IMG/VR virus record: IMGVR_UViG_2786546475_000019
Span: 974 to 64,973 of that record
Origin: a virus
Strand: one strand, 5' to 3'
Length of the DNA: 64,000 bases
Of this stretch, positions 827 to 59,144 are shown piece by piece. The translations under genes and the position numbers were made by a program. Positions within the stretch are counted from its first letter, which is position 1; each line of letters begins with the position of its first letter. The notes beneath the pieces are model-generated. The model had not been told where the DNA came from and ran no database searches. It saw only the letters and a program-made list of their open reading frames with translations.

Positions 827-855
827 TTAAATCCTTATTTGGAAGGAATACCACT

Positions 856-33403: not shown

Positions 33404-33612
33404 GCCAAAGCCAACTTGAAGCTTACGCCAGACAACGTAAGTTTAGGCCCAAGATGGAAAATGTTCAAATTTGTGAACAGTGCGACCACTTAATACGTGA
33501 TCGCTACTGTTCCAAATTTGGCAAGTGTCCTGACGCTCAAAAAGATTTCTTTAAAGCCCTTGAACGAAGTAAATGTCCTTTAGAGAAATTTCCGTCGCAG
33601 CTCAGCGAATAG
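33400..33612 (+). CDS. Small Cys-rich protein (CEQCDH...CSKFGKCPD)
   Basis: ORF of 70 aa, last gene of the + strand block. Confidence 0.3.
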   Translation: MSQSQLEAYARQRKFRPKMENVQICEQCDHLIRDRYCSKFGKCPDAQKDFFKALERSKCPLEKFPSQLSE

Positions 33613-33996
33613 AATTCTAACTTGCTTAGGAGTTAACTCTAACAAACGCCCGATTTCCGAATACGTATAGTATTGAAGTCGTAAACTTACAGCCCATCGC
33701 TCCTCGACAGTTAGCCTATCTAGGTCAAACTGATCGAGGAATTCTTCTGCACTTCTTGATAATTCTTCAATATCGCCTAACGCTTCGGTATCATTGTTTG
33801 TTTGCATTTTCTTTCGACGACGGTAAGCGTCAATACCTCTCGACCGTAGTAAGGTTCTTAAGTGTGAGATGAATTTCTTTTCCTCAACTAGCTCATGATA
33901 ATTCTCCCACGCTTGTAAAAATTCCAAAGATAGCGAGCAGTCAAATTTAGTTTCAAACTCTCGCAACAAGTAAACATAATCGTCGATCCTTCGCAT
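33580..33996 (-). CDS. Sigma-factor region-4-like HTH protein (possible ECF-type sigma or anti-sigma-related)
   Basis: C-terminal YSEIGRLLELTPKQVRILFAELRRKF resembles a sigma-70 region 4 HTH. Confidence 0.35.
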   Translation of the reverse strand: MRRIDDYVYLLREFETKFDCSLSLEFLQAWENYHELVEEKKFISHLRTLLRSRGIDAYRRRKKMQTNNDTEALGDIEELSRSAEEFLDQFDLDRLTVEERWAVSLRLQYYTYSEIGRLLELTPKQVRILFAELRRKFL

Positions 33997-34005
33997 GATA
34001 GTCTC

Positions 34006-34593
34006 CTACACTGCTGTTAAGTCTAGCCAACACAATTTTTTGTAAATTTTAGCAGTCAACAACGTATCATAAAGAGCGTCATGCAAACTAGCTTGATCGT
34101 AAGGAATGTCCAAAGCTTTGGCTAATGAGCTAAGCTTCACATCTGGGAACAATGGCTTATGGCCCCGAAGCTCACATCTATCATTGATAAAGTGAGCATA
34201 ATCCATGGTGTCTCTACAGAACCCGTGGAAGTGGAGTCCATAAGTTGCCGACCCATATAGTTTCTCCAACATAGGCCTATCAAAATCTTTGTAGTTGTGT
34301 CCAACTGGCAAGATTCTAGACCATTCCGCTGAGAAGTTTAACCGTTCAACCCAGTCTTCAAACGCATCCATTGCTTGGTCCTGAGTCAATCCATGGATGC
34401 TGGCTTTAGCTGCGTAGGGCGAAGTGATATTTACTTCTGGTTTTATCAACCACTGAACCGCTAGATGTTCAACAGGATCAAGATTATCATTAAGAGGAAT
34501 CATAGCAACTTGCCAGACCTCATCTAGCTCTACATCCGTTCCTGTCGTCTCAGTATCAATGCAGACTAACAAACTTCCTTTATGGTTTAACAT
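34006..34593 (-). CDS. DEDD-family 3'-5' exonuclease (DnaQ-like)
   Basis: Exo I motif LLVCIDTETTG. YDTL in the C-terminal region is consistent with Exo III. Confidence 0.6.
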   Translation of the reverse strand: MLNHKGSLLVCIDTETTGTDVELDEVWQVAMIPLNDNLDPVEHLAVQWLIKPEVNITSPYAAKASIHGLTQDQAMDAFEDWVERLNFSAEWSRILPVGHNYKDFDRPMLEKLYGSATYGLHFHGFCRDTMDYAHFINDRCELRGHKPLFPDVKLSSLAKALDIPYDQASLHDALYDTLLTAKIYKKLCWLDLTAV

Positions 34594-35230
34594 TTTCTAG
34601 GCCCCCAGAATTAAGACCTTTGATAGACTTAGCCAGTTTTAGGGTCTTCGCAATCAAATCCTGAATGCTTCCATCATTTTCCAAAATGAAAGTTGCACGC
34701 TCCTTGAACCGTCCAACATCTTCGGAGACGTGCTCAGGTTTAGGAGGAATCTTGCCCGGACGTTCAAGATAAATTGTAACATCGAACAAATCAAACTCGT
34801 TATCAAACCTAACGTCGTCAGCCAAGAATGAATTTGACCCCATGAAATTTAAAACGCCTCGGACGTGAGCGTCCTTATTAAGCGTTCGAACAATCCCCGT
34901 CCCAAAATATTGCATCAACATTCGAGGAGTCTGCATGATAGGATGGTCCCAATGAGCCACTCGTTCAATTCCTCGAAGCGAAACTCCGCTACGTGTTTGG
35001 AAATGGAGACAAAACTTACGAATAACTCTGGGCCCGATTACTCGTTCATTGATGCGAATGCCTTTGAAGAAACTTTCAAGCCAGAAACATCGCTCCAAAC
35101 CAAAAGTCAAAGACAACGCACTTTTCAAATGTTTAGCCAACGGATGATAGTAAAGCTCTAGCTCTTGGGTAAGAACTTGAGCCACGAGACTTTTTCCACT
35201 TCCTTTGTAGCCAATGATACCTACTCTCAT
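34580..35230 (-). CDS. P-loop nucleotide/nucleoside-monophosphate kinase
   Basis: Walker A GIIGYKGSGKS at the N-terminus. Confidence 0.5.
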   Translation of the reverse strand: MRVGIIGYKGSGKSLVAQVLTQELELYYHPLAKHLKSALSLTFGLERCFWLESFFKGIRINERVIGPRVIRKFCLHFQTRSGVSLRGIERVAHWDHPIMQTPRMLMQYFGTGIVRTLNKDAHVRGVLNFMGSNSFLADDVRFDNEFDLFDVTIYLERPGKIPPKPEHVSEDVGRFKERATFILENDGSIQDLIAKTLKLAKSIKGLNSGGLENVKP

Positions 35231-35655
35231 TCTTTTTCTCCTTTTTCTGGATTACCGAAACAGTTGTAACAAATACCTTCTACTAAGCAATAAGCTTCAC
35301 AATCCCCGCAATGTTCGCCAAGGTCTGTAGGAATACCATGATATTCGATAGGCTTATTGTGCTCTGTTGCGTAGTCCAACTCAGCTTGAACGCCGATTGA
35401 TTGTCTCCAACCCCACTGAGTTAGAACTATCAAAGATTCACAAAAGCTCAAATACTCTAAGTCAATCTTTTCCCAAAAGTCCCAAGTGGTGGCCACGTTG
35501 GACATATGTTTCTGAAGCTCATGACTGTGAGTAATAGGGCTGTAAACGTTGGTCCCATTCTGAACCAAACGGGCCGCGTACCTTGTGACTACTCCAAACC
35601 GATGGTCTATCATTCGAGAATCAGAGTGAGTGTAAGGGGTAGCTAAATATATCAT
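35227..35655 (-). CDS. Nucleoside 2-deoxyribosyltransferase-like fold protein with a C-terminal Cys cluster
   Basis: IYLATPYTH ... VYSPITHSH ... pattern, then CGDCEAYC...CYNC. Confidence 0.35.
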   Translation of the reverse strand: MIYLATPYTHSDSRMIDHRFGVVTRYAARLVQNGTNVYSPITHSHELQKHMSNVATTWDFWEKIDLEYLSFCESLIVLTQWGWRQSIGVQAELDYATEHNKPIEYHGIPTDLGEHCGDCEAYCLVEGICYNCFGNPEKGEKE

Positions 35656-36347
35656 TTGCTTCTCCGGTTAGCTTGATAATTTGCGATTGAAAACCCACGA
35701 GGAGTCATACTACGAATCTCTTTTACGTTAGGGTGTGATCCTCCAATTTTACCATATTGCCGGGAGTATCCATCTTCTGGTATCACTTTCTTTTTAGGCG
35801 GCATCTTAAACCCGCCACCTGTCCACAGGTATGTTTCCTTCGGGTACGCGTCCCGTGGAGCAATATATTGTGGCCAAGTAGGGTGTTCATCATCTTCTGG
35901 TAAGTACCCACCGTATTCGTACGGGTGAAACTTGTAATCTGGTTTACGCCACAAAGATGATAGTCTCGATTTAGGATTCTCAATGAACCACGGACATTGC
36001 AACTCTGTGAAAACGCGACGACACCAGATAGCGTAACGTGCAGCTTTGTATTGGAAGTCTGGATCGTGGCCTTCTTTCGAGGGCCAGTGAATAATTCCAG
36101 AGACTGCCAAGTCGGTACAAACAGGGAACGCCGCCCCAAATACCACTTCCTTTCCTTGAAAAGTATCAATGATACGCCTAACTTGTTCCAGGTCGTGAAG
36201 GTCAGCCTTGTGGAAATGAATCACGTTGTCCCCGATCCGTTGTCGATGATCTACGTGCTTTATATCGTAAGCATGACATTCGTAACCTGCTCTGGCCCAA
36301 GGATGAAGTAACACCCCGGAGTGATCGTACAAGCTTAAAACTATCAT
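35652..36347 (-). CDS. Short cytosine-C5-methyltransferase-like protein (divergent, 231 aa)
   Basis: LSLYDHSGVLLHPWARAGYECHAYDI (motif I-like), FPVC (PC-motif-like), FIENP (ENV-like). Too short for a canonical DNA C5-MTase. Confidence 0.3.
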   Translation of the reverse strand: MIVLSLYDHSGVLLHPWARAGYECHAYDIKHVDHRQRIGDNVIHFHKADLHDLEQVRRIIDTFQGKEVVFGAAFPVCTDLAVSGIIHWPSKEGHDPDFQYKAARYAIWCRRVFTELQCPWFIENPKSRLSSLWRKPDYKFHPYEYGGYLPEDDEHPTWPQYIAPRDAYPKETYLWTGGGFKMPPKKKVIPEDGYSRQYGKIGGSHPNVKEIRSMTPRGFSIANYQANRRSK

Positions 36348-37168
36348 ACGGCCACGTCACCTTTGATAGCCGGATGGGGATTGTAACCTTCAAGAATAAT
36401 ATCTTCCCACCGAAGTGATAAAATATTCTCCAAAGGAGATAACACCGGATCAGCTTGCCTTGCAAAACGAAGCTTTGGAGCTTCTTTAGCTGGGCGTCTC
36501 AACTGTAGGTTGACTTGATCTACGTGGTTGTTGTAGATATGAGCGTCGCCAAACGTATGGTAATACGTCTTGGGTTTAAGGTCCGTGGCCCACGCCAAAA
36601 TGTACATAAGCAACACGTAGGATGCAATGTTAAACGGAACGCCAAGAAACATATCAGCAGAGCGTTGATACATTTTCAAGGACAGTTCTCCATTTGATAC
36701 GTAGCATTGGAAAAACATATGGCACGGCGGTAAGGCCGCATCTCCACCTGGAAGGTGATGTTTTGGGTGCCAAGCAGAGCAAATAACTCGTCGGCTGTTT
36801 GGAGACTCAGTTAGGCAATCAAGCACGTACTGAATCTGATCTACGCCGTTGAAGTCTCTCCACATCTTCCCATACACCGGACCAAGCTCTCCGGCAGCGT
36901 CTGCCCATTCGTCCCAGATATGAACATTCAGGTCTTGTAACGATTTGATATTTGTCTCTCCTCGAAGAAACCACATCAGTTCCTCAAATACCAACCGCAA
37001 AGGTACAAACTTTGTAGTGAGCAATGGGAAGTGACTACTGATTGTTCCGTAAATTTGAGGGCCGAATAGACGAATTGTTCCGGTCCCTGTTCTATCATCA
37101 TGTGTTTCTCCGTGGAGCAAAACACTTTTAAGTAATGACAGATACTGTTGTTCTAACGCTGAATACAT
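36344..37168 (-). CDS. thyA: Thymidylate synthase (ThyA family)
   Basis: DRTGTGT, ALPPCHMFFQCYV catalytic Cys motif, FLGVPFNIASY (Asn for dUMP), DAHIY. Aligns along its length with E. coli ThyA by eye. Confidence 0.85.
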   Translation of the reverse strand: MYSALEQQYLSLLKSVLLHGETHDDRTGTGTIRLFGPQIYGTISSHFPLLTTKFVPLRLVFEELMWFLRGETNIKSLQDLNVHIWDEWADAAGELGPVYGKMWRDFNGVDQIQYVLDCLTESPNSRRVICSAWHPKHHLPGGDAALPPCHMFFQCYVSNGELSLKMYQRSADMFLGVPFNIASYVLLMYILAWATDLKPKTYYHTFGDAHIYNNHVDQVNLQLRRPAKEAPKLRFARQADPVLSPLENILSLRWEDIILEGYNPHPAIKGDVAV

Positions 37169-37294
37169 TAAGTGCTCCTTTGTTTTAGGTACGTGTCTAA
37201 GGTAATTACTGCTGCTTCAATAGTAGACTTCTCCTGTTCAAATTCTTTCAATAGGATCTCCTGATGATCTTTGGAAAGAATTATCAATGAATTT

Positions 37295-37573
37295 CTAGTT
37301 CTGATTTTTTTTTTTTTGACCTATTTTAACTGCCAGTATTAAATCTTCAACGTTCCAGGCGTCAGTTTCAATACCAGTAAATGATAGTTTTCGATTCTCA
37401 GGACCGGTATAAATTACTCCGCCCAAGTCATAGATCATATTAGATCTGAATGTTGCACTGTCTGGTGTAACATTGTAGACTCGCTCGCAATGAAGAATCC
37501 GTTCACAAGCCGTAGCCCAATCCGAACACCATTGGTTAACAACTACTTCATCTTGGAAATTGATAAATACCAT
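37295..37573 (-). CDS. Hypothetical protein ending in KKKNQN encoded by an A13 tract
   Basis: ORF of 92 aa. T13 on the + strand at 37305-37317. Confidence 0.35.
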   Translation of the reverse strand: MVFINFQDEVVVNQWCSDWATACERILHCERVYNVTPDSATFRSNMIYDLGGVIYTGPENRKLSFTGIETDAWNVEDLILAVKIGQKKKNQN

Positions 37574-37585
37574 AAACAGCCTTTC

Positions 37586-38236
37586 TTAAACCATATTCAA
37601 AGTAATTGGAGGTTTGTCGCTTTTTAAAAGTTTAGCTAGCTTTTCTAACGCTCGCTTTTCAAGTTGACGAACTCTTTCTCGCGAGATATTAAGAGTTTCC
37701 CCAATAGTCTTAAGAGGAATCCCTTGGGCTCGTAGCCTCAAAACTAAAGCATCTCGACTATTTAACTCAAGAAAAGCTTTTTCTAGAGCAATAAGCTCCT
37801 CTTGCCATTCTATCAAATCCCTATCAAGACATTCTAAAGGTGTAACAGGGTTATTAAATAGCCCGTGTAAGGTTTGAAACATTGGAGCACGAGCTATAGC
37901 AGCTTTAGCTCTGTCAAGATGAGCTGGATTTGGAGATACTTTAATTAACTCCACCTTGGTTTTCATGTAAGTTATCATTCGTTGTTTCACCCACGGAGTG
38001 GCGTAAGTTGAAAACTGATAACCTTTACTAGGGTCAAATTTTTTGACCGCCTGACATAACCCACTCATTCCTTCTTGAATTAAATCGTCTAAATCAAGCT
38101 TAGAATTTTTCTTGGCAAAAGACACCGCTATCTTGATAACCAATCCTTGATTATCTAACACTAACCGATTGAGTGCTTCATCAGCTTCCTTTCTAGCAGA
38201 ATGATATTTTTGTAATAACTCGTCATTAGTATCCAC
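37586..38236 (-). CDS. Sigma-70 family RNA polymerase sigma factor (group 3/4-like, SigF/FliA-sized)
   Basis: Region 2: DLIQEGMSGLCQAVKKFDPSKGYQFSTYATPWVKQRM. Region 4: TIGETLNISRERVRQLEKRALEKL. Confidence 0.65.
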   Translation of the reverse strand: MDTNDELLQKYHSARKEADEALNRLVLDNQGLVIKIAVSFAKKNSKLDLDDLIQEGMSGLCQAVKKFDPSKGYQFSTYATPWVKQRMITYMKTKVELIKVSPNPAHLDRAKAAIARAPMFQTLHGLFNNPVTPLECLDRDLIEWQEELIALEKAFLELNSRDALVLRLRAQGIPLKTIGETLNISRERVRQLEKRALEKLAKLLKSDKPPITLNMV

Positions 38237-38239
38237 AGT

Positions 38240-38425
38240 TCACTCACAATCTAAAGGGAATTGTTCATGTATTTCCAAACTCACAACCAACTTCCCACAC
38301 TTAGGACAACGAACCGACTGTTTTCTTTTCTTGAGCCGATGCTCAAGCTCCTGTTTTGTTGACCGTTGTTCAGCGGGAAAAGTTGTTTTGACTACCACAG
38401 GCTCCGGGGTTTCATTTACGTCCAT
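38240..38425 (-). CDS. Small zinc-ribbon protein (CPKCGK)
   Basis: ORF of 61 aa. Confidence 0.3.
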   Translation of the reverse strand: MDVNETPEPVVVKTTFPAEQRSTKQELEHRLKKRKQSVRCPKCGKLVVSLEIHEQFPLDCE

Positions 38426-46369: not shown

Positions 46370-46998
46370 TCAACTCCTCCAAATAAATTGTCTTGACACG
46401 TTTGACACAAGCCACTGATTTGATATTCGCGGATACTGGCTTCGTCTTCGAAATTGTCAGCAATGTTCCCACACCCAATGGGGCTTGGCACACATTGAGC
46501 TTGTTTGATACAACGCCTACGGTCCTTGCCCAACTGTTTAGTTAAAGCTGCTTCAATTGCTTCGTCTTTAACGGTAGGCGTATACCGTTTGATAAACTTT
46601 TCGACTTTCTCCAAGTTATCACGCCATTCAAAATTTCCTAAATACCAAAACGTATTTTTAGGGCAATCTTCTGTCCCGTAAAATGCCCACAATCCTTCTA
46701 GTCGCCCGGAACGACATTGATCAATAGCGTTTTCAAAAGCGTTCAAATCATCAAAGTCAAAGTCCAAGAACTTAGCCCTTGACTCACAGTCCCAAATTAC
46801 GGAAGTGGTTAACCGCTTCTCCGCTATTTTTTGGATAGTACAGGTCGCGGCACAGCCTATACAAATGCCTTCTCGTTGAGCACCCCAAGACCCCATATAC
46901 ACTTCAAAGTCCGGGGCTTTATCAAATTCTTTTAGCGAGTCAACCATGACTTGCAACGCGTCGATTGGAGTGGGGACTATTTCTTTGATACTTTTCAT
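46366..46998 (-). CDS. Cys-rich hypothetical protein
   Basis: ORF of 210 aa. Confidence 0.35.
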   Translation of the reverse strand: MKSIKEIVPTPIDALQVMVDSLKEFDKAPDFEVYMGSWGAQREGICIGCAATCTIQKIAEKRLTTSVIWDCESRAKFLDFDFDDLNAFENAIDQCRSGRLEGLWAFYGTEDCPKNTFWYLGNFEWRDNLEKVEKFIKRYTPTVKDEAIEAALTKQLGKDRRRCIKQAQCVPSPIGCGNIADNFEDEASIREYQISGLCQTCQDNLFGGVE

Positions 46999-47606
46999 AA
47001 TGATAATGCCTTAATGATAAGGGACGCTCGGATAGTTTCTGCTTCAATTTGAGCTTTTTTAAGCTCTTTCTCGTAGGTTCGCTTGGTCCGGGACCCTAGC
47101 CCCTGTTCCAAGTCCCAATAACGAGGGGTTACGTACTCCATTACAGACGTGGCAAATTGGCTTTCAGCTTCACACTCTAAAGCAATTTGTGCTTGGTCGC
47201 CTTGAGCCGAGTAGCCTAAGTATAAAAAGTCTTCTTTAGCCGCCCGGAAAGCAGCGACTCGTATGCACATTTTCATCGCATTGATAATATGAGACTGTTC
47301 CATATCCTCAATGTTAATGCTTTTGCCTCCTTTCATAATCCAGGTCGGTTTACGTAAATACTTGGAAGCGTGAGCACTTTTCACTGTGGAGCGTACTCGA
47401 CTGTTCCAAATCTCTAAATACGTCTTTTGAAGGTAACCCGCTTTTCGAAGTTTTTCCTCAAGCTGGCGAAGCTTTTTATCAATGTGACGATGTTTTGTAG
47501 CTCGTCTGGAGTCATCACTATGTTCGTAAGTTACGTCAAAAGTGTTGAGTAACTCTTTGTACTCCTCTAAACTCATGATATCTCCTTTTGGTTGTACCTG
47601 GCCCAT
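46995..47606 (-). CDS. Hypothetical protein
   Basis: ORF of 203 aa. Confidence 0.35.
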   Translation of the reverse strand: MGQVQPKGDIMSLEEYKELLNTFDVTYEHSDDSRRATKHRHIDKKLRQLEEKLRKAGYLQKTYLEIWNSRVRSTVKSAHASKYLRKPTWIMKGGKSINIEDMEQSHIINAMKMCIRVAAFRAAKEDFLYLGYSAQGDQAQIALECEAESQFATSVMEYVTPRYWDLEQGLGSRTKRTYEKELKKAQIEAETIRASLIIKALSL

Positions 47607-47848
47607 ATTTTTTTCATTTTATCAACTGGAACATCTCCAATGAAAAGAAAACGAATGCTGAGAGATAATTGAATCATGTCCCACGAAACTTTCTCTCCAT
47701 CGTCGAACTCAATCATAGGCTCTAAAGACCCATGATCGTTAAGAAAAATACCGACATATGTGGCCCTCGTAACTTTATCAATGTCTCCATATTGATTGAA
47801 CCATGTGAACTTTTTATCACGTACCGCATCCACTTGGTGCGTGGCCAA
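47573..47848 (-). CDS. Hypothetical protein
   Basis: ORF of 91 aa. Confidence 0.3.
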   Translation of the reverse strand: MATHQVDAVRDKKFTWFNQYGDIDKVTRATYVGIFLNDHGSLEPMIEFDDGEKVSWDMIQLSLSIRFLFIGDVPVDKMKKIWARYNQKEIS

Positions 47849-47992
47849 GAACTCGACTTCGGGTACTGTTTTAAGGTTCTTGAAAGGTACACCTGCGTGA
47901 CAAAGGGCTTTCTTCCCGTCAACAATGATAAAATCTCCTGTAAATGGAAGGTTACGAAAAATCCGTGATTTCAGTTATTGCGTATTTTTTCA

Positions 47993-48277
47993 TTACGAGT
48001 CTCCTAAAAAGAATTTATGGCTTATTTTATCATCAAGAATGTTTTCGACTTCTTCCCAAGTTGTAATTCCTTGGTATCCTCGTCCGTCGTACTCAAGAAC
48101 AACGTCTCCAAAGGTTAAGTCCCACGTGAACTCAAGCACGGCCCACACTCCATCTGCGTACTGGCACAGAAAAGAGCCTTGTTGCAAAGGACATTTTCCA
48201 TCAAGGAAAGAAGCGGCTTGCTCTGTAAAATCGGAGTCTTGGTTTTTAACAAAGTCAAGTAATGTATCAAAGTTCAT
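47993..48277 (-). CDS. Hypothetical protein
   Basis: ORF of 94 aa. Confidence 0.3.
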   Translation of the reverse strand: MNFDTLLDFVKNQDSDFTEQAASFLDGKCPLQQGSFLCQYADGVWAVLEFTWDLTFGDVVLEYDGRGYQGITTWEEVENILDDKISHKFFLGDS

Positions 48278-48281
48278 TTTT

Positions 48282-48650
48282 TTATCCTTGTGGAAAATAA
48301 TGATTTAAAAAAGGTTCCAAGGCCCGGGCACAACGAGCACATGAGTGTTCCCAGTCCCCGTTATCACTTAACTCCCCGTGGCCTACTTGATACGTGCCGT
48401 TAGTATGGAGCGTCACTTGGCAACGTCCGCCACACTCAATACCGATACTCTTGTTGTGAGATTTGATAATCTCATCAGCGATCTCGTAACACGGAGCTTC
48501 AACAACAATGTACGTATCAGGGGCGTTGACCATTACTACTACTACTGCGTAAGATTTACGCCCCATTCCCCGCTCATTAACACCTAGCCGCCACTCCAGA
48601 GAGCAGGCTTTTTCTTGAAGAAAACGTAATCGTTTCAAAGCTCCATTCAT
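48282..48650 (-). CDS. Hypothetical protein
   Basis: ORF of 122 aa. Confidence 0.3.
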   Translation of the reverse strand: MNGALKRLRFLQEKACSLEWRLGVNERGMGRKSYAVVVVMVNAPDTYIVVEAPCYEIADEIIKSHNKSIGIECGGRCQVTLHTNGTYQVGHGELSDNGDWEHSCARCARALEPFLNHYFPQG

Positions 48651-48850
48651 ACCACGCTCCTTGTTGCTTTAGTTTCATCTCCAAGGCCCACGACAGGAAC
48701 TATCAATTCCCCGTTTGGGACAGGGACCGTGACTTCTTCTGGCAATTCAAACCAGTAGTTATAGTGTCGTCCACAAGGGAATTCCACTTTGATAGCTACC
48801 TTAGCTACTGAATCCCTTGTACTTTCTTTGATTCCTTCTTGGGTAATCAT
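48647..48850 (-). CDS. Hypothetical protein
   Basis: ORF of 67 aa. Confidence 0.3.
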   Translation of the reverse strand: MITQEGIKESTRDSVAKVAIKVEFPCGRHYNYWFELPEEVTVPVPNGELIVPVVGLGDETKATRSVV

Positions 48851-48910
48851 TGTTAAACTTTCTGTAAAGTGAGTATAGTCCGTAAATAAACACTAATAAG
48901 TAAAGCATCC

Positions 48911-48940
48911 TGCTCCCCTTTGCTCCCCTTTGCTCCCCTT
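48911..48940. repeat. tgctcccctt x3 tandem 10-bp repeat (minus strand aaggggagca x3), intergenic
   Basis: Seen directly. Confidence 0.85.
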
Positions 48941-48951
48941 TGCTTCATTCG

Positions 48952-49341
48952 CTAGTTAAGACCTGGAAATGTACCCATGATACTTCCAAAGTGTTCCAAA
49001 CCCCCTAGCCCCAAGTAGTACCGCTCCACATCGATATCTAATAAATGATAGTGTGCGTTGTACAGCTCTAAATAATCTAAATATCGTTTGATAATTTCAG
49101 CTTGTGTCTCTCCTTTACAAAGAGACTCACGACTTATTGCATATACGTAACGATATATTCCCTTATTCTTAGGGACTGGGTTCTCCCATAAATGTTGTTG
49201 CACGTAATCTACGCCTAGAAGCACTAGGCTGTCAACGTACGTGCAAGTATCAGCGTCCATCTTATGTCCAATGATACTGAGATGTAGCTTTAGGTCCATC
49301 TCCAAAGCCCATGGACCTACTTGCTTTTGCCATTCGGTCAT
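48952..49341 (-). CDS. Hypothetical protein
   Basis: ORF of 129 aa. Confidence 0.35.
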   Translation of the reverse strand: MTEWQKQVGPWALEMDLKLHLSIIGHKMDADTCTYVDSLVLLGVDYVQQHLWENPVPKNKGIYRYVYAISRESLCKGETQAEIIKRYLDYLELYNAHYHLLDIDVERYYLGLGGLEHFGSIMGTFPGLN

Positions 49342-49508
49342 TTGTCTCTCCGTACAGGTAGATGGTAATATTGGCCGTGTTCTTCAAACAAACATCTGAT
49401 AAAAATGTTCACTTTTGACATTTCTGTCCACGGCCCTTTAGAGGCCATCCAAATTACAAAAAGTCCGGCCCCCAATATTAAAGCCATTGATAAAGCTTTG
49501 TGTTTCAT
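49338..49508 (-). CDS. Small membrane protein (start refined to MKHKALSMALILG...)
   Basis: Conserved RBS gaaaggaatatcATG. The ORF-track start at 49550 lies inside the upstream element. Confidence 0.35.
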   Translation of the reverse strand: MKHKALSMALILGAGLFVIWMASKGPWTEMSKVNIFIRCLFEEHGQYYHLPVRRDK

Positions 49509-49520
49509 GATATTCCTTTC

Positions 49521-49578
49521 TAAACAAGTAAACAACGGTCCACGCTCCATGATACTTGGAGCGTGGTACGTTGGCTAC
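49521..49578 (-). promoter_or_regulatory. Conserved palindromic element copy A: GTAGCCAACGTACC-hairpin-GGACCGTTGTTTAC (minus-strand sense), immediately 5' of the RBS
   Basis: Four copies share conserved 14-bp arms with variable, self-complementary inner stems. Confidence 0.6.
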
Positions 49579-49586
49579 TCTTACCG

Positions 49587-50147
49587 TTAGGTAGACTCAA
49601 ACGTTACGATATCCGGGTCTTGTAGCCCTCCGCCTAAGTCGGAAGCTTTCAACTCAAATTCGTAATTAACTCCACGGAACCCCGTGAAGTTATCACCGAC
49701 CCAGCCGTCGAAAGTGAACTCAACCCGCACCGTGACAGTAGGAGCGGGAATAGCTACTTCCTCAATGAATACGTCGGTCCAGCCTTGACCGCCAGAACCT
49801 CCATTAAGCGGGTTAGTGTTGTTTCCCCAATTCATAGGAAATTTTATAGTTTCCGTCACGCTCACGGGACCATTTGGGCCTTCTACCACGACAGTGTGGT
49901 CAACCATTTGATAAGTTCTCACGTGAACTGCAAGCCACTCCAAACGATTGTCAACCCACCAAGTTGCAGTTAAGTTAACTTTTGTAACGTCCCCGGCTGA
50001 GACTTCCGTGACTCCCATTGAGGCGGAGCTGTAGTAGTCTCCGGAAGTGCCGTGCACCGGGTTGTTGCCGCCTCCGCCTACTTGACCGTAAGCAGTTGTT
50101 GCTACGAGCAACAGAATAGTAAACAACACAAGTGATAAAATACGCAT
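49587..50147 (-). CDS. Secreted protein (signal peptide MRILSLVLFTILLLVATTAYGQ)
   Basis: ORF of 186 aa. Confidence 0.45.
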   Translation of the reverse strand: MRILSLVLFTILLLVATTAYGQVGGGGNNPVHGTSGDYYSSASMGVTEVSAGDVTKVNLTATWWVDNRLEWLAVHVRTYQMVDHTVVVEGPNGPVSVTETIKFPMNWGNNTNPLNGGSGGQGWTDVFIEEVAIPAPTVTVRVEFTFDGWVGDNFTGFRGVNYEFELKASDLGGGLQDPDIVTFEST

Positions 50148-50176
50148 AGTCTCTCCTTAAAAGAGTAAAGATTTGT

Positions 50177-50188
50177 GGTCCGTGGACC
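50177..50188. promoter_or_regulatory. GGTCCGTGGACC 12-mer (second exact copy), intergenic
   Basis: Exact match to 2566-2577. Confidence 0.5.
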
Positions 50189-50189
50189 A

Positions 50190-51014
50190 TCATTTAGTAG
50201 GACGACACAATGCTCGTGTCTTCCAGTAGTTGAAGCTACGTTCCAACTCTTTGACGAACGCTTCCGCATCCATCTGAGTATCAGTGCCGCCGTCGCTGCC
50301 GAAGTGGTTGTGCAGCAACGTTTCAGGTTTCATCGGAGCATTCAGGTCTTCTAAGTCCACCCCAGCGTTGACTGAGATGATATTCCACCGCCCGTAGGCT
50401 TGTTCTCCGCTCTCATAGAGCACGTCTCGATGATAAAGGACGACTTCGACGTGGCAGGCGGCGGCCTTATTTACGCCGTCCAAGTATTCATGCCGACGTG
50501 GCGACTCGCCGTCACGTCGTGGCTTATACTCCACGATCAAAGTATCATTGTTCCGAAGCTTACGAATAGGGCAATAAACCCCGTTCGCGTCAATCGGAAC
50601 GATGATAACTCCGTCTCTATAGCCGGGACGCTGCTCGTGAAATCGGGCTTGTACCTGTTCAACGAGCACTTCGTCTGAGAACTTCCAGTGGGAGAACTCA
50701 CTATTGGCTGTCTGCCGACTAACGAAGTCGTGGACCGCTACGTCTGGAGCTGGGTTGCTCCAGTTCTGTTGCGTAACCTGCAACACGGTGGGTTCTCCAT
50801 TAGGGTGGATCGCCGCTTTGTCCCTTGGCTCGTAGTCATAAATGAAGGTATCTCCGTCCGAGGATTGAAGGGCATTACGCCCCGATCCATCTTCTTCTGC
50901 GTCGCCGTAGGGGACGTAGCCGTTTTTAAGAAGTATGATAAATTCGTCGTTACTTAACATTTGTTGGTTGTCAGTTTTCATCTCGCTCTCCTGTTTATTT
51001 AACAAGCTTTCCAT
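50190..51014 (-). CDS. Hypothetical protein
   Basis: ORF of 274 aa. Confidence 0.4.
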   Translation of the reverse strand: MESLLNKQESEMKTDNQQMLSNDEFIILLKNGYVPYGDAEEDGSGRNALQSSDGDTFIYDYEPRDKAAIHPNGEPTVLQVTQQNWSNPAPDVAVHDFVSRQTANSEFSHWKFSDEVLVEQVQARFHEQRPGYRDGVIIVPIDANGVYCPIRKLRNNDTLIVEYKPRRDGESPRRHEYLDGVNKAAACHVEVVLYHRDVLYESGEQAYGRWNIISVNAGVDLEDLNAPMKPETLLHNHFGSDGGTDTQMDAEAFVKELERSFNYWKTRALCRPTK

Positions 51015-51283
51015 TCAGCAATAAGTTTAGCAGCTTCGGGTGAGACTTTCACCCACTGTTTCACTGAAATGTCCTCATGGGTTTCAACAGCTGCCGTGAT
51101 ACGTGTGTTGGTCTTCGGACCATTAGCCGCTAAGCCAAAGAGTCCACCGCACTCAGAACTCCAGTAAAGGACCATTCGAGCGTTTCGCAATTTGATAGGC
51201 TTTCCAGCTTCGGGGTCTTTGTCCGCCATACCGATTATAACGGCTCGTCCGTTTTCCCCGCAACAAACTAGATACATCGACAT
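50999..51283 (-). CDS. Hypothetical protein
   Basis: ORF of 94 aa. Confidence 0.35.
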   Translation of the reverse strand: MSMYLVCCGENGRAVIIGMADKDPEAGKPIKLRNARMVLYWSSECGGLFGLAANGPKTNTRITAAVETHEDISVKQWVKVSPEAAKLIAEWKAC

Positions 51284-51284
51284 T

Positions 51285-51629
51285 TCAGTCTCCTCTTATC
51301 AATTGATAAATTTCTTTGTAAGTATGTACTGGCATATTATACTTGTCCGCTATATCCTGCCAGTTCTCTTCCCACCAGCTAAAAGAATGACACTGACCCC
51401 CAACTTTCAACACTCCAAAGTCTTGGTTGACTTCTACTTTGCGGCCGTGTAAAATTCCGAGTGTTATCAGTTTGCCGTAGCCGTAGCCGTAGCCGTAGCC
51501 GTAGCCGTCGCCGTCGCCGTAGCCGTCGCCGTAGCCGTAGCCGTAGCCGTAGCCGTCGCCGTAGCCGTAGCCGGTCCCGTAGCCGGTCCCGTAGCCGGTC
51601 CCGTAGCCGTCGCCGTGGTTACTTAACAT
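51285..51629 (-). CDS. Gly-Tyr repeat protein: N-terminal (GYG/DGYG)n low-complexity region (~50 aa) plus a ~60-aa C-terminal domain
   Basis: RBS taaggaactatcaATG. Encoded by a (GCCGTA/GCCGTC)n hexanucleotide array at ~51470-51610. Confidence 0.45.
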   Translation of the reverse strand: MLSNHGDGYGTGYGTGYGTGYGYGDGYGYGYGYGDGYGDGDGYGYGYGYGYGKLITLGILHGRKVEVNQDFGVLKVGGQCHSFSWWEENWQDIADKYNMPVHTYKEIYQLIRGD

Positions 51630-51726
51630 TTGATAGTTCCTTATAAATGATCAACTTTGGTCTTTGCTTCACGCGGACCGATGTACGGTTCCAACGTAAA
51701 TAAGTCATTGATATTTTCACATAGTT

Positions 51727-51933
51727 TCATCTTGCTCTCCTGTTTGCTCGCTTAGCGAGTCGTTGAGTTTCAGGATCGTCCGGAAGTATCACTAGCGATC
51801 CTGCGGTCTTATGGCCGTACACCATGTACCCTGTAGCACGCTCCGTGGTGCTACAGGTTGCACACGTCATTGTGTGCGGAAGTACCTCTAAGCGTTCACT
51901 ATCAATTTGTGTTTTGCAGTTTATGCAGTTCAC
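51727..51933 (-). CDS. TraR/DksA-like C4 zinc-finger protein
   Basis: CINC...15 aa...CATC in a 68-aa protein, typical of the phage TraR-like family. Confidence 0.4.
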   Translation of the reverse strand: MNCINCKTQIDSERLEVLPHTMTCATCSTTERATGYMVYGHKTAGSLVILPDDPETQRLAKRANRRAR

Positions 51934-52178
51934 TCTTGCTCCTTCCAGAACTTGATATTTTTGACAACCCCTTCGGCGAGGTCAGCGATAGAATCTATCA
52001 CTTCTCGCTCACAACCGGGAATGGTGTAGAAGTAATTAAACTCCCCACCCTCGGTGAAGGTAACAAGTTGCGTGAAGCGACCCTTGTTTATCTTGGACAA
52101 GTGCCAGTAGACTTCGCGAACGCCTTCGTTAAGAAAAATGTAACAGGGAGTTTCGCCAATGACTTTAGTTTCGTACAT
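51930..52178 (-). CDS. Hypothetical protein (start refined to MYETKVIGE...)
   Basis: The internal ATG is preceded by the conserved tgaaaggattatcATG start context. Confidence 0.35.
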   Translation of the reverse strand: MYETKVIGETPCYIFLNEGVREVYWHLSKINKGRFTQLVTFTEGGEFNYFYTIPGCEREVIDSIADLAEGVVKNIKFWKEQE

Positions 52179-52188
52179 GATAATCCTT

Positions 52189-52518
52189 TCAGATTGAGTA
52201 AGTGCGAGATTGAAGTGCTTGTTTCGGTTCACGGCCCTTGTACTTAGTTCCAGGCTGCTCGAACCACGTTCCACGTGAGATGTGAATATCCAAGTCAAGA
52301 TATTCATACTTCGGGACGTTATAATAGTCTGCTAAGTCGTAAACGTCCAGATTATCAAGATCTGGAATTGGTCGCAACGTAATATGCGACAGTACGTAAG
52401 CCGCCACATTACGTTGCTTACGCTTGAGCGTTGGGTTAGCCGCTTGGACCGTGGCCCACAGCCGCTCAAAAGACTCTAGAGTTGGACACAACTCAATGAT
52501 AGATACTCTCTTAGACAT
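52189..52518 (-). CDS. Hypothetical protein (start refined to MSKRVSIIEL...)
   Basis: Avoids the 185-bp overlap with the upstream gene. gggag RBS. Confidence 0.3.
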   Translation of the reverse strand: MSKRVSIIELCPTLESFERLWATVQAANPTLKRKQRNVAAYVLSHITLRPIPDLDNLDVYDLADYYNVPKYEYLDLDIHISRGTWFEQPGTKYKGREPKQALQSRTYSI

Positions 52519-53062
52519 TGGCCACGGCTCCCATCTTAAGAACCTTGGCACACATTGCCAACAATTTGGCGTGGTGTCGGGGAGCTTCAACATGGTTCTC
52601 GAACCATGAATCATCCGCCCCACATGGTAGCTTGACTCCCCCGGCTCGGAAGTATTGATAATTGTGCCGTGCGACACGGGCATTGTCCCGTGCATTGAGC
52701 AAGCACTCCCGTCTCGTGGCCCGTGGCGGACGAAGATGGTCGAATTTCATCAAAAGAACGCTATCAATGGAAGATTTCCCGCATCCTGCGTCTCGCAGCG
52801 TGCGAATATCATCCGCTGCGGCTTTGCGAGCGGTTCGAACCCACTCAATATGGGCCAGAGCTTCCCGATAAAGGTCGATCTGTTCGCTGATCCAGTAGCC
52901 AAGGGTGGCCTCAAAATCATGGAGAGTTACTTGATAGTCCAGAGTTCCGACCCAACGTAGCGGGGTGCCTGGAATGTAAGCTTTGTAGTCGTGGCCGGAA
53001 GCCTCGACCTCGACAGGCAAATCGTTGACGTAGAACATTCCAAGAGGTTGCATAGCTTTCAT
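52511..53062 (-). CDS. Hypothetical protein (start refined to MKAMQPL...)
   Basis: Conserved start context. The ORF-track extension to 53152 runs through element copy B. Confidence 0.4.
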   Translation of the reverse strand: MKAMQPLGMFYVNDLPVEVEASGHDYKAYIPGTPLRWVGTLDYQVTLHDFEATLGYWISEQIDLYREALAHIEWVRTARKAAADDIRTLRDAGCGKSSIDSVLLMKFDHLRPPRATRRECLLNARDNARVARHNYQYFRAGGVKLPCGADDSWFENHVEAPRHHAKLLAMCAKVLKMGAVANV

Positions 53063-53087
53063 GATAATCCTTTCAAGTGAGAAAAAA

Positions 53088-53134
53088 GTAAACAACGGTC
53101 CCTGCACCTCACGAGTGCATGGTACGTTGGCTAC
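53088..53134 (-). promoter_or_regulatory. Conserved palindromic element copy B
   Basis: gtaaacaacggtcc ... ggtacgttggctac on the + strand. Confidence 0.6.
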
Positions 53135-53144
53135 TGGCTTGCTA

Positions 53145-53570
53145 CTAAACAATTGCCCTCTGATTCAGTTCAGGAACAACAGTGTGAGCTATCAATATCC
53201 CAAGCTTGACGCCCCAGTTGACGAGTCTTTGATAAGCTTCGTCCAGCTCCGCCAACGTCTTATATTTAAGGGTCAGCCCGCTGATTAGCAAAGGCTCACC
53301 GTCGCGAGTCGCTCGCAACACGCATTTCCCGTCCCCGGTTGTGATAGAAAAGCTGCATTTATCAGCTAGTCGTAGCTGCGGTATGCCAACCATGTTCAAT
53401 TTTCGTCGAACGTATTGGCGAGCCGCCTGGGAGTCCGTAGCATACGTGACCTTGAGGTGCTCAATAATTTGTTGAGTGTCGGACGTGCCATACAGCTCCT
53501 GAAGTCGCTGATCGGTCTCAAACATCAGAAGTTGCTCGATGAAATTCCAAGTCGTGTGATTGTTAATCAT
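53145..53570 (-). CDS. Hypothetical protein
   Basis: ORF of 141 aa with the conserved start context. Confidence 0.4.
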   Translation of the reverse strand: MINNHTTWNFIEQLLMFETDQRLQELYGTSDTQQIIEHLKVTYATDSQAARQYVRRKLNMVGIPQLRLADKCSFSITTGDGKCVLRATRDGEPLLISGLTLKYKTLAELDEAYQRLVNWGVKLGILIAHTVVPELNQRAIV

Positions 53571-53591
53571 GATAATCCTTTCAAGAAATTA

Positions 53592-53638
53592 GTAAACAAC
53601 GGTCCATGCACCTCATGGGTGCACGGTACGTCAGCTAC
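53592..53638 (-). promoter_or_regulatory. Conserved palindromic element copy C
   Basis: gtaaacaacggtcc ... ggtacgtcagctac. Confidence 0.6.
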
Positions 53639-53645
53639 CAACTAC

Positions 53646-54014
53646 TTATACTTCAGTCCGCCACTTAAGCCAGAATTCCAACATAGCGTTAAAGTTGTGG
53701 TAAGTCCCGTCGTCTTCGACGTTATGATAATCTTCAAGGTCCAACGGGGCGAACTCCTCAAGTGTCTCACGCAACGGTCTGACGGTGTGTGAACCATTCG
53801 TTGAGTAAGAATATGAAACTTCCGTTAACGCCTCACATCGCACAATAAAGGTTTCGAAAGTTTTCTCAAGCCGAGATTGGAGCCTGCGATCTTTGATTTC
53901 TCGAACTATCAGTACCGGGGTTCCTGGTCCTTTGACCAATAACCCTTTCTTGATTTCGATTCGGTTCTCTTTGACTTCTCGACAGATTTTGAACAACATA
54001 GACTTAGCTTTCAT
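53646..54014 (-). CDS. Hypothetical protein
   Basis: ORF of 122 aa with the conserved start context. Confidence 0.4.
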   Translation of the reverse strand: MKAKSMLFKICREVKENRIEIKKGLLVKGPGTPVLIVREIKDRRLQSRLEKTFETFIVRCEALTEVSYSYSTNGSHTVRPLRETLEEFAPLDLEDYHNVEDDGTYHNFNAMLEFWLKWRTEV

Positions 54015-54038
54015 GATAATCCTTTCAAGTGAGAAACA

Positions 54039-54086
54039 GTAAACAACGGTCCGGGCTACCCGTGGGCAGCACGGTACGTTGGCTAT
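54039..54086 (-). promoter_or_regulatory. Conserved palindromic element copy D
   Basis: gtaaacaacggtcc ... ggtacgttggctat. Confidence 0.6.
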
Positions 54087-54142
54087 TGATAGACCTAGGC
54101 CCGAAGGCCCAGGATTAAATCCAGATTGTCAAAGATCAAAAT

Positions 54143-54285
54143 TATCATTTGTGTCCCGCCACTGGCGGAAATGATATGATAGCTTACAGACCTACGGTCA
54201 ATCTATTCTATACTTAATATCGGCAATTGGGAAGTAAGAAAATAGATTATTTTTGAAAATAATCAAAACTTTATCATATCATTTT
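54143..54285. promoter_or_regulatory. Operator-like region. It has the palindrome TATCATTT-gtgtcccgccactggcgg-AAATGATA. It also has the inverted pair AAATGATATGATA (54169-81) and TATCATATCATTT (54273-85)
   Basis: Seen directly. The same architecture recurs at 59145-59359. Confidence 0.55.
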
Positions 54286-54627
54286 TTACACTGTTTCCTT
54301 CTCAATGATAATCCCATTGATTTCGAATTGGTTCGTGACCATATGCCAATGCATATCATTATACAGGAACCGATAGCAAGTTCTCCGATACCTGAACTCG
54401 TGACTAGGCCCATGGGCCGTGTACTCGGGTGTAGGCCATTTATCAATGTACCCTGTTAGAGACACGGACCTTTCATCTGGAAAAAAGAATTCAGGCTCTT
54501 GGACCTTGATCAATTCATCGTTGGACAAGTTACGGAGCCAAAGCCTATCTTCATCAAGATGATAATTTGCCTGCCACTCAAACCAAGCTTCAAACTCAGT
54601 CATGAAACAGTATGGGTTTCTGTTCAT
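54286..54627 (-). CDS. Hypothetical protein (start refined to MNRNPYCF...)
   Basis: gggagttaacATG RBS. Avoids the 175-bp overlap with the Dam gene. Confidence 0.35.
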   Translation of the reverse strand: MNRNPYCFMTEFEAWFEWQANYHLDEDRLWLRNLSNDELIKVQEPEFFFPDERSVSLTGYIDKWPTPEYTAHGPSHEFRYRRTCYRFLYNDMHWHMVTNQFEINGIIIEKETV

Positions 54628-54628
54628 G

Positions 54629-55396
54629 TTAACTCCCAAGAATATAAAGTGCTTCAACCACGGAAGATCGAATCTCGCCAGCAGATTGATAGATTCGATA
54701 CTCGTACTTTTCAGTCCATTCCTGAGCTTCCAAGTATGTGTTCTTGTAGTGATTGATAACAACAGTGCCTTGTCGGTCCTTGGCCCACGAAACAATTTCC
54801 TCAAGCGAGATCAGATCGAACCCTTGTGTCTCATCGTAAGGCGGGTCCAAGTAGAATAACGCATCGACACTATCATATGAAGCTAGCTTCTTCCAGTCCC
54901 AATTCTCGATTTGCCACTTGCTAATACGAGCACGAAGCAGGGGCCAGATTCTCATTTTACTGGCTACATTCGGCTGCTTCTGTGAGAAGTTGCGAGCGTA
55001 GTTAAGCCTCCGCCCCAAGTAAGACATAACCGCTGTCACGTACCACTTTGCTGCACGCTTCACGGGGTTACTTGATAGCTGCCAAGTCTTTTTGCAATGC
55101 AACCATTCTTCTTCGGAAGAAGGATGATACTTTTTAAGTTCTTCGACAAGCTCCTCGTAGTGGTTACGGAACGCTCGATAGAAGTCAATGATCCCGGAGT
55201 CTTTATCATTAAACACCATGTACGGGAACTGAGCCACGTTCAATGATACCATTCCTGTCCCGCCAAACACGTCAATAAATTTCTTGTGCGTGTCTCGCAT
55301 GTGGTTCAGAATAGGAAGAATATGTTGCAAGGCCCGTGCCTTAGACCCTATCATTCGAAACGGAGCTTCACGTTTCTTGAAGTCTTTATCAGTCAT
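54629..55396 (-). CDS. DNA N6-adenine methyltransferase, Dam family
   Basis: DVFGGTGMVSLNV (motif I, FxGxG) and YLDPPY (motif IV DPPY). Confidence 0.7.
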   Translation of the reverse strand: MTDKDFKKREAPFRMIGSKARALQHILPILNHMRDTHKKFIDVFGGTGMVSLNVAQFPYMVFNDKDSGIIDFYRAFRNHYEELVEELKKYHPSSEEEWLHCKKTWQLSSNPVKRAAKWYVTAVMSYLGRRLNYARNFSQKQPNVASKMRIWPLLRARISKWQIENWDWKKLASYDSVDALFYLDPPYDETQGFDLISLEEIVSWAKDRQGTVVINHYKNTYLEAQEWTEKYEYRIYQSAGEIRSSVVEALYILGS

Positions 55397-55581
55397 CCTA
55401 GTATCTCCAAGAGAACATTTAATTGGTCAGCACACGTCCGATACCCTTGTCGCTCGGCTTCGCGACGGTTTTCAAACTCCTGACCTTCTGGAGACCCATC
55501 AACTATTTCAGGTCGAGCCCCTTTCTCTCGCCACTTCTCAATCAACGCTTCTAAAACTTCTCGCTTGATACTTTTAGTCAT
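55393..55581 (-). CDS. Small hypothetical protein (ATG start at 55581 with a gggagg RBS; the ORF track uses GTG at 55641)
   Basis: RBS spacing. Confidence 0.3.
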   Translation of the reverse strand: MTKSIKREVLEALIEKWREKGARPEIVDGSPEGQEFENRREAERQGYRTCADQLNVLLEILG

Positions 55582-55976: not shown

Positions 55977-55979
55977 AGT

Positions 55980-59017: not shown

Positions 59018-59059
59018 CACGCTACACGTATCACGCTACACGTATCACGCTACACGTAC
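59018..59059. repeat. cacgctacacgtat x3 tandem 14-bp repeats (iteron-like), followed by the ACGT-rich palindrome tacgcgta
   Basis: Seen directly. Confidence 0.85.
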
Positions 59060-59144
59060 GCGTAGCACGTGGGTACGTGCCAGGGCCAAAGACCTTGAGT
59101 TCTCTTTTAAGTCTCGGAACTGACGTGTAAATTAGTAAGCGGTT

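Follow-up and report, generated by a model that had tools for sequence, protein, structure and literature searches.

Two sigma-70-family proteins and a three-copy promoter-like element in an uncultured marine siphovirus: a possible route to redirection of host RNA polymerase

We analyzed a 64,000-nucleotide (nt) stretch of viral DNA, positions 974 to 64,973 of the IMG/VR record IMGVR_UViG_2786546475_000019 (hereafter the window), and found that it carries genes for two sigma-70-family proteins, one of 216 amino acids (aa) and one of 138 aa, together with a bipartite promoter-like element in three identical copies. These high-information elements head nearly all of the replication and virion genes. 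No RNA polymerase (RNAP) gene was recognized in the full 72-kb genome, including the 8 kb outside the window. Because two sigma-family genes are present and a recognizable phage RNAP is not, redirection of the host RNAP is the natural reading, as an initial annotation of this DNA had supposed, and we give about even chances to the view that the two proteins redirect the host core enzyme. The reprogramming of host RNAP by phage sigma factors is a well-known principle and is not new. What is unusual here is that the 138-aa protein is an orphan and so extremely reduced, and that the regulon is a clean one of three promoters. Both open reading frames (ORFs) exist at the coordinates and lengths that the initial annotation had given for them, and the features on which the argument depends are as follows.

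37586-38236, minus strand: the 216-aa sigma-70-family factor, with Pfam regions 2 and 4, TIGR02937, phrog_351 and PDB alignments.
33580-33996, minus strand: the 138-aa candidate ECF-like (extracytoplasmic function) mini-sigma, with a truncated sigma2 (three predicted helices) and sigma4.
2634-2670, plus strand: element copy 1, GGGGCAATCC-N14-CGTATCTATAGGG, 17 nt upstream of the ATG of gene 2688, the first gene of the virion block.
58696-58660, minus strand: element copy 2, about 67-70 nt upstream of the primase start (58592/58589), heading the leftward block.
59278-59314, plus strand: element copy 3, 60 nt before the ATG at 59375 of a ParB-like gene (GGAG Shine-Dalgarno), heading the ParB-helicase-PolA-ligase block.
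2232-2256, plus strand: a terminator-like hairpin, with an 11-bp stem (7 GC pairs) followed by ATTTTTAT; minimum free energy -20.2 kcal/mol, z -2.3.
2688-33612, plus strand: the virion block of about 31 kb, containing TerL, portal, major head protein and tape measure.
58592-33580, minus strand: the 25-kb replication/nucleotide-metabolism block, with both sigma-family genes at its far end.
From 59375, plus strand: a second plus-strand block with ParB-like proteins, helicase, PolA and ligase.

The 216-aa protein is almost certainly a sigma factor. It matched Pfam Sigma70_r2 (PF04542) with 65.2 bits over residues 25-93 (cutoff 24) and Sigma70_r4 (PF04545) with 47.9 bits over residues 157-201 (cutoff 24.1), scored 112.3 bits against NCBIfam TIGR02937 (cutoff 42.9), and matched phrog_351 'RNA polymerase sigma factor' with an E-value of 1.9e-43. 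These scores bear out the initial description of a sigma-70-family factor with regions 2 and 4. The closest solved structures are RpoS, SigA and RpoD (E ~1e-18). In the PDB alignments, region 2.3/2.4 reads FSTYATPWVKQ, for which the RpoS/SigA counterpart is FSTYATWWIRQ, with Pro where W433 would be; region 4.2 reads SRERVRQLEKRAL, and the counterpart in Taq SigA is TRERIRQIENKAL. The architecture consists of regions 2.1-2.4, a remnant of the region 3.0 helix and regions 4.1-4.2, with just 63 residues between sigma2 and sigma4 and no Pfam match to region 1 (1.1, 1.2) or region 3 (PF04539). None of the subfamily or equivalog cutoffs tested (RpoD, RpoS, RpoH, FliA, SigB/F/G, ECF) was reached, and the subfamily scores were far below them (101 vs 384 for TIGR02997; 79 vs 190 for FliA_WhiG). 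Only one comparably short sigma relative was found, a protein of 214 aa with 40% identity on a 2-kb contig. In the promoter complexes of sigma70 and Taq SigA, an aromatic cluster reads the TATAAT-like -10 and an R-E-R-x-R-Q helix reads the TTGACA-like -35. Because both the cluster and the helix are conserved, the 216-aa protein appears to be a stripped-down, housekeeping-like sigma, with DNA-reading residues that are almost those of RpoD/RpoS.

The 138-aa protein is very probably a homolog of the sigma family, and the chances that it is a working sigma seem to us evenly balanced. Its residues 26-136 aligned to positions 36-160 of the 165 in the TIGR02937 profile (E 5.6e-8, 32.6 bits) and also to phrog_1740 (sigma factor; E 4.6e-6), and its next NCBIfam matches were all ECF (Bacteroidetes type, SigY, SigM, SigZ, SigV). 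The initial annotation had taken it for a helix-turn-helix (HTH) protein with region 4 only. In a split test, each half was aligned by hhalign against an ECF profile built without the query: residues 24-66 corresponded to sigma2 regions 2.2-2.4 (84% probability, E 7.7e-6) and residues 91-134 to sigma4 (94.5%, E 8.3e-8). The two halves match the profile in register, and the region-4-only description is wrong; the homology to sigma2 and sigma4 is collinear, and sigma1 and sigma3 are absent. When 5.8 billion clusters were searched by word index, the protein retrieved itself alone, and an exhaustive phmmer search of 1.84 billion representatives gave three weak relatives (E 2e-4 to 7e-4, 160-172 aa), all of which are true ECF sigmas with r2 and r4_2. 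In the alignment to ECFs, the three N-terminal helices lie on sigma2 and the C-terminal half on sigma4; about 10-13 residues are lacking from the N-terminal end, where the first sigma2 helix appears to be missing. A PDB sequence search yielded nothing significant. A structure model from the single sequence was unusable (predicted local distance difference test score, pLDDT, 57). The AlphaFold2 (AF2) model from an alignment of 66 sequences had a mean pLDDT of 66.6; its sigma4 half (pLDDT 78-91) superposed on sigma domain 4 at 1.1-1.9 Å, and a fold search confirmed a sigma4/LuxR-type HTH. The gene is well formed, with GGAG 7 nt ahead of the ATG, and a longer N-terminus is ruled out because an in-frame TAG lies four codons upstream. 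An identical protein is encoded on 17 contigs from many Tara samples. Of the two phage sigma-family proteins proposed at first, the 216-aa one is a clear sigma; the 138-aa one is very small, highly divergent and sigma-like, with all of its curated scores below threshold.

In the 72,099-bp genome there are exactly three copies of the bipartite element, GGGGCAATCC-N14-CGTAnCTATAGGG. The three copies have no mismatches at the 23 specified positions (chance expectation 0.00), a scan allowing up to 3 mismatches found no fourth site, and the next-best site in the genome had 6 mismatches. Two of the 14 spacer positions are invariant. Every copy is co-oriented with the first gene of a large block and lies 17-70 nt upstream of it. 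A/T-rich sequence (TTTTCAnnAT) stands ahead of the -35 box in each copy, and copy 1 has an A/T-rich palindromic stretch (2600-2633) directly upstream. The initial annotation had suggested the head of the late plus-strand operon, preceded by a short palindrome at 2600-2618, as a sigma target. A promoter-like element is indeed found right after the palindrome, but the palindrome itself is not the conserved unit. The terminator-like hairpin at 2232-2256 lies directly 3' of gene 856-2217 and parts that gene from the copy-1 unit. We consider it highly likely that the three elements are promoters and fairly likely that they depend on a phage sigma; that they are read specifically by the 138-aa protein is a tentative assignment, to which we would give somewhat less than even weight.

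It is conceivable that the elements are binding sites for replication, partition or packaging proteins instead of promoters, and that the 138-aa ORF is a decaying, functionless remnant of a sigma gene. The 580-bp region between two of the copies abounds in iteron-like repeats (59017-59058, 3 x 14 nt) and has ParB-like genes next to it, and the 138-aa protein is an orphan. However, each of the three copies points toward the gene downstream of it from a promoter-like distance, and the two conserved boxes, the unconserved spacer of fixed length and the terminator ahead of copy 1 suit a promoter. The 138-aa ORF is moreover intact, with a strong Shine-Dalgarno, and identical across many samples. 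We regard this explanation as very improbable. The 3' box, which ends in CTATAGGG(a/g)(g/a), recalls the T7/K11 initiation region, TATAGGGAGA. A T7-like promoter served by a phage RNAP was nevertheless rejected, since the elements are bipartite with an unconserved 14-nt spacer, not a contiguous block of about 23 bp as in the promoters of T7-type single-subunit RNAPs, and no RNAP gene, single-subunit or other, was recognized in the full genome.

Promoters of B. subtilis ECF sigmas have AAC at -35, CGT at -10 and spacers of 14-17 bp, and adhere closely to their consensus; CGTA is the sigmaW-selective -10, and the sigmaV promoter is GCAAAC/CGTC (PMC5758882). A preference for C-14 G-13 is common to many ECF sigmas (PMC6372665). 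Our element reads GGCAAT-N16-CGTA in all three copies and so has the CGT -10 and a spacer within the 14-17 bp of the ECF type (PMC5758882, PMC6372665). It resembles ECF promoters in its CGTA -10, 16-nt spacer and GCAAx -35, as well as in the closeness of its copies to one consensus (PMC5758882). The 138-aa protein is the better candidate reader, because the 216-aa protein keeps the TTGACA helix and GCAATC shares one of six positions with TTGACA.

Another possibility is that the 216-aa sigma reads the elements as GCAATC-N17-TA(T/G)CTA and acts as the single middle/late sigma, like those of phages phiEco32 and 7-11. The 138-aa protein would then be an accessory sigma4/LuxR-type regulator or a co-factor, maybe at pairs of the 10-mer AATGATATGA that bracket two promoters. 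This possibility gains from the fact that the 216-aa protein alone passes curated thresholds, from a parse that gives T-12, A-11 and a 17-nt spacer, from the limitation of the fold evidence for the 138-aa protein to its HTH half, and from the operator-like inverted pairs of AATGATATGA at 54170/54274 and 59228/59349. It loses from the R-E-R-x-R-Q helix retained in region 4.2, which reads TTGACA and would find the same single matching position in GCAATC, and from a -10 that ends in A and not in the T-7 required by primary-type sigmas. In addition, a plain HTH regulator would not match sigma2 in register, as the 138-aa protein does in its N-terminal half. On balance this alternative appears unlikely.

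Several results weigh against the reading that we prefer, in which both proteins redirect the host core RNAP and the smaller one recognizes the elements. The TIGR02937 score of the 138-aa protein is under the cutoff (32.6 vs 42.9), and the Pfam cutoffs were missed for r4_2 (PF08281; 19.9 bits, residues 92-130, cutoff 25.7) and for r2 (PF04542; 13.7 bits, residues 26-63, cutoff 24). Its first 23 residues align to nothing, the 'DxxQE' core-binding motif of ECF region 2.2 is poorly conserved, and the sigma2 half of the model (pLDDT 61-69) was covered by no fold match. No orthologue was found among about 15 billion proteins, so conservation is unusable as evidence for this protein; the clonal population provides no selection signal, and covariation analysis has no basis because there are no close relatives in INPHARED, IMG/VR and JGI metagenomes. 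With respect to the elements, the -35 box in all three copies is GCAAT, with AAT and not the canonical ECF AAC. The alternative parse, GCAATC-N17-TA(T/G)CTA, is equally possible and perhaps readable by a group-1/3-like sigma. ECF-style autoregulation is absent, as neither sigma gene has a copy immediately in front of it (none within 20 kb upstream of the 138-aa gene). Finally, one promoter class for both replication and virion genes leaves one of the two sigmas without an identified target; a second bipartite class was seen neither by exact 5+5-mer enumeration nor by repeat search, which is a weak negative.

One or both of the sigma genes might also be auxiliary and host-directed. In that case the 216-aa protein would reprogram the host's transcription or keep it going, as the sporulation-type sigmas of Bacillus phages do, and the elements would be read by another factor, such as a host alternative sigma or an unrecognized phage protein. 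There are documented phage sigma homologs without which lytic growth still proceeds (PMC9429907), the reading heads of the 216-aa protein appear host-like, and five large phage proteins (453, 543, 616, 403 and 895 aa) are without any family match. The elements, however, are unlike any primary-sigma consensus and yet head nearly all replication and virion genes, which a phage would not normally entrust to a conditional host sigma. The searches of the genome detected no RNAP-like domain, and the bipartite geometry with a free spacer is sigma-like, unlike the contiguous promoter of a single-subunit RNAP. We consider such a host-directed role, with the elements left to another factor, quite unlikely.

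Under the preferred reading, two sigma-family proteins on one host core enzyme, the course of transcription may be as follows. The scheme builds on the domain homologies, on the number, position, orientation and invariance of the elements and on the terminator upstream of copy 1, all of which are observed; core binding, the pairing of sigmas with promoters and the timing are the parts that we infer from them. Host holoenzyme would initiate at sigma-70-like promoters in the small-gene region, for example at 54233-54205, and transcribe leftward. The sigma genes lie 16-20 kb downstream, and their expression would be delayed in consequence. The 138-aa ECF-like mini-sigma would then bind host core RNAP and recognize the three GGGGCAATCC-N14-CGTAnCTATAGGG (GGCAAT-N16-CGTA) promoters, whereby the primase/methylase unit, the ParB-helicase-PolA-ligase unit and the 31-kb virion unit would be switched on. 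The 216-aa sigma would most likely serve TTGACA/TATAAT-like promoters, where it would stand in, as the phage's own factor, for the host primary sigma. In its fullest form, the scheme supposes that the 138-aa orphan is a fully functional two-domain sigma without the first sigma2 helix or a canonical region-2.2 motif, that it is the sole driver of replication and virion genes from the three promoters, and that the 216-aa sigma takes the -35/-10-type promoters, so that both form a joint two-sigma takeover kit in an abundant marine siphovirus. We think that all of this together is possible but rather unlikely. The combination of a reduced orphan sigma candidate with three identical promoters makes the sigma-promoter assignment directly testable. 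If the 138-aa protein works as a sigma, it would help to define the minimal sigma2 for core binding and DNA melting, and it could provide a compact orthogonal sigma/promoter pair for synthetic biology.

At least one sigma homolog is present in 13.4% of RefSeq phage genomes, two in 1.1% and three in 0.7% (PMC9429907), and divergent ECF-like sigmas of phages escape ECF classification (PMC7826278). By analogy, the closest functional counterparts seem to be the distantly ECF-like sigmas gp36 of phiEco32 and gp47 of Salmonella phage 7-11. These are also lytic tailed phages with a divergent sigma and without their own RNAP; their sigma forms a holoenzyme with host core, as is proposed here. They share with our phage a plus-strand structural cluster and a minus-strand functional cluster, and their phage promoters, identified through alignment of intergenic regions, are likewise few and nearly identical (PMC4331800, PMC8948821). 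In 7-11, early promoters are sigma-70-dependent and late promoters are bipartite, GTAAtg-N16-aCTA (PMC4331800, PMC8948821), with the same 16-nt spacer and the same position upstream of late genes as here. On the other hand, our phage has two sigma-family genes and those phages have one; the element heads two replication units here as well, not late genes alone; and the promoter boxes differ, being GGGGCAATCC/CGTAnCTATAGGG in our genome. A tblastn search of 50,697 phage genomes with the 138-aa protein gave no match, hence no detectable similarity to the phiEco32/7-11 sigmas. Bacillus phage SPO1 (gp28, then gp33/gp34) likewise has more than one sigma-family protein per genome, there acting on host core RNAP. 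In our case one phage-specific promoter class was found, a two-step cascade is not evident, and the proteins are unrelated in sequence.

With bacterial ECF sigmas (group 4; sigmaW and sigmaV of B. subtilis, and the Bacteroidota-type nearest relatives of about 161 aa), the 138-aa protein shares sigma2 and sigma4 only, with about 23-30% identity across both domains. It is about 20-25 residues shorter than the ECFs of about 160 aa, the missing part apparently being the first sigma2 helix, and DxxQE is not conserved. The genomic context is also not of the ECF type, as the neighbors are a DnaQ-like exonuclease gene and a convergent 70-aa ORF. Unlike ECF genes, the 138-aa gene has no recognized anti-sigma adjacent and no autoregulatory promoter in front, and the candidate promoter has AAT in place of AAC at -35. 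An adjacent anti-sigma and an autoregulatory promoter are common among ECFs, not obligatory. The 216-aa protein is comparable to RpoD/RpoS (groups 1-2) and to compact group-3 sigmas in its FSTYAT.W -10 cluster and RERxRQ -35 helix, and its sigma2 and sigma4 are nearest to RpoS/SigA. It differs from RpoD/RpoS in having only 216 aa, no match to region 1.1/1.2, a mere remnant of region 3.0, and Pro for W433.

The position of the sigma genes does not mark them as early, as the initial annotation had it: they are at the far end of the 25-kb minus-strand replication/nucleotide-metabolism block. They lie 16 and 20 kb into it, surrounded by genes for nucleotide metabolism. The block includes genes for primase, Dam-like and Dcm-like methylases, a Dda-like helicase, a DHH phosphoesterase, a MazG-like protein, ThyA, a nucleoside deoxyribosyltransferase-like protein, a dNMP kinase and the DnaQ-like exonuclease, and it ends with the 138-aa gene. 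This gene is convergent with the last plus-strand ORF, which encodes a Cys-rich protein of 70 aa, and overlaps it by 33 nt (33580-33612). Between these two ORFs no terminator was detected, so late plus-strand transcription would run antisense into the 138-aa gene. On its other side, the 138-aa ORF shares its frame with the DnaQ-like exonuclease gene (34006-34593), and only a TAG and three codons stand between the two (33994-34008). Read-through would fuse the two proteins, but the shared frame is probably chance, at 1-in-3, and no suppressor tRNA for it is present. The 216-aa gene starts with GTG, 3 nt past the stop of an upstream 61-aa ORF (38240-38425, minus strand), with which it is probably translationally coupled. 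The 61-aa product has a weak zinc-ribbon signature, CPKCG, and might modulate the sigma or RNAP.

The phage is an uncultured marine tailed phage, and its TerL, portal, major head protein and tape measure mark it as a siphovirus. The window corresponds to positions 1026-65025 of a 72,328-bp Tara Oceans contig and covers most of the phage genome. A differently permuted 71-kb assembly extends beyond the window end and back into the window start, so the genome is of about 72.1 kb and either a circle or circularly permuted. The contig is filed at NCBI as 'MAG: Acidobacteria bacterium' (locus tags CL489_06195 and CL489_06230), that is, under a metagenome-assembled genome (MAG). It is actually a complete siphovirus genome of about 72 kb, and the public record is corrected accordingly. 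The phage recurs near-clonally across many Tara Oceans samples. Population variants were found at 136 positions in 45 kb, none of them in either sigma gene or in any of the three elements; assemblies differ by 5-7% in window positions 1-1336 and by less than 0.4% in the remainder. In INPHARED there was no similar DNA and no homolog of the 138-aa protein, and TerL, the major capsid protein (MCP) and the 216-aa sigma matched only distantly (<35% identity). Queries of IMG/VR with the 216-aa sigma, the 138-aa mini-sigma and MCP returned no relatives. JGI metagenomes had no close relatives of the phage, and a protein-level metagenome scan gave generic sigmas alone, with 28-37% identity. The element motif was absent from both IMG/VR and the JGI metagenomes. 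No tRNAs or Rfam families were found. The nearest ECFs of the 138-aa protein hint at a Bacteroidota host, but 50 of 90 genes have a Shine-Dalgarno motif in front of them (background 13%), which makes such a host doubtful.

Conserved palindromic elements before the early genes had also been proposed as sigma targets. They are stem-loops, located as follows.

49526-49580, minus strand: conserved stem-loop.
53086-53136, minus strand: conserved stem-loop.
53590-53640, minus strand: conserved stem-loop.
54037-54088, minus strand: conserved stem-loop.

Each has a stem of about 20 bp, and the conserved boxes, GTAGCCAACGTACC and GGACCGTTGTTTAC, form its arms. There are 20 predicted pairs, 4 of them with compensatory changes, and the loop length varies by 4 nt. 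Because the boxes pair together, with compensatory changes and a variable loop, there is no fixed -35/-10 geometry, and we rejected them as sigma targets. After each stem-loop in this small-gene region come a U-rich GUUGUUUACU tail and a ribosome-binding site, and the start codon follows 15-25 nt on. The stem-loops matched no Rfam family; they could be intercistronic terminators, attenuators or RNase processing sites. Three apparent gaps, 8035-8319 and 12738-12951 in the late block and 47849-48281, turned out to be coding.

Other sequences of possibly regulatory nature are listed here.

54205-54233, minus strand: candidate host-type sigma-70-like promoter, TTCCCA-17-TAGAAT, from a consensus scan only and of low confidence.
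54170-54183/54270-54283: inverted pair of AATGATATGA.
59228-59241/59346-59359: inverted pair of AATGATATGA; a fifth copy lies about 160 nt before window position 1.
2273-2334: iteron-like array of 3 x 20 nt, AATATCAACTAGCTGCACGC, upstream of element copy 1.
59017-59058: iteron-like array of 3 x 14 nt, TCACGCTACACGTA, upstream of element copy 3.
48911-48944: iteron-like array of 3.4 x 10 nt.

The candidate promoter at 54205-54233 is within the sole sizeable regulatory gap of the minus-strand block (54018-54288), and the small-gene region downstream of it continues as far as both sigma genes. The stretch 46500-59500 is enriched in sigma-70-like matches (36 vs 17.7 +/- 4.7), in part owing to TATCATG start contexts; 33-46.5 kb shows no enrichment (26 vs 23.1). 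The 10-mer AATGATATGA(TA) has 5 copies in the 72-kb genome, with inverted pairs 104-121 bp apart; one pair brackets the sigma-70-like promoter candidate and another brackets element copy 3. These sites look like operators for a regulator, possibly with DNA looping. The array at 59 kb, between divergent promoters and beside ParB-like genes, may be an origin or a partition site.

The sequence TTTGATCTTTGACAAT, which holds a perfect TTGACA, occurs at 708-730 (plus strand) and at 54118-54140 (minus strand). Both copies are intergenic and co-oriented with the downstream gene, with a strong hairpin within about 10-17 nt and no recognizable -10 after either of them. GGACC/GGTCC is over-represented in the window (170 copies vs about 99 expected from base composition), and tandem arrays of the CCACGGACC type occupy regulatory regions at 1-100, close to the window start, and at 2437-2513, ahead of the late promoter. 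Among the phage genes are those for a Dcm-like and a Dam-like methyltransferase. A 114-aa ORF (51285-51629, minus strand) without a family match has a (D/T)GYG/YG dipeptide repeat in its N-terminal half, with 24 copies of GCCGTA.

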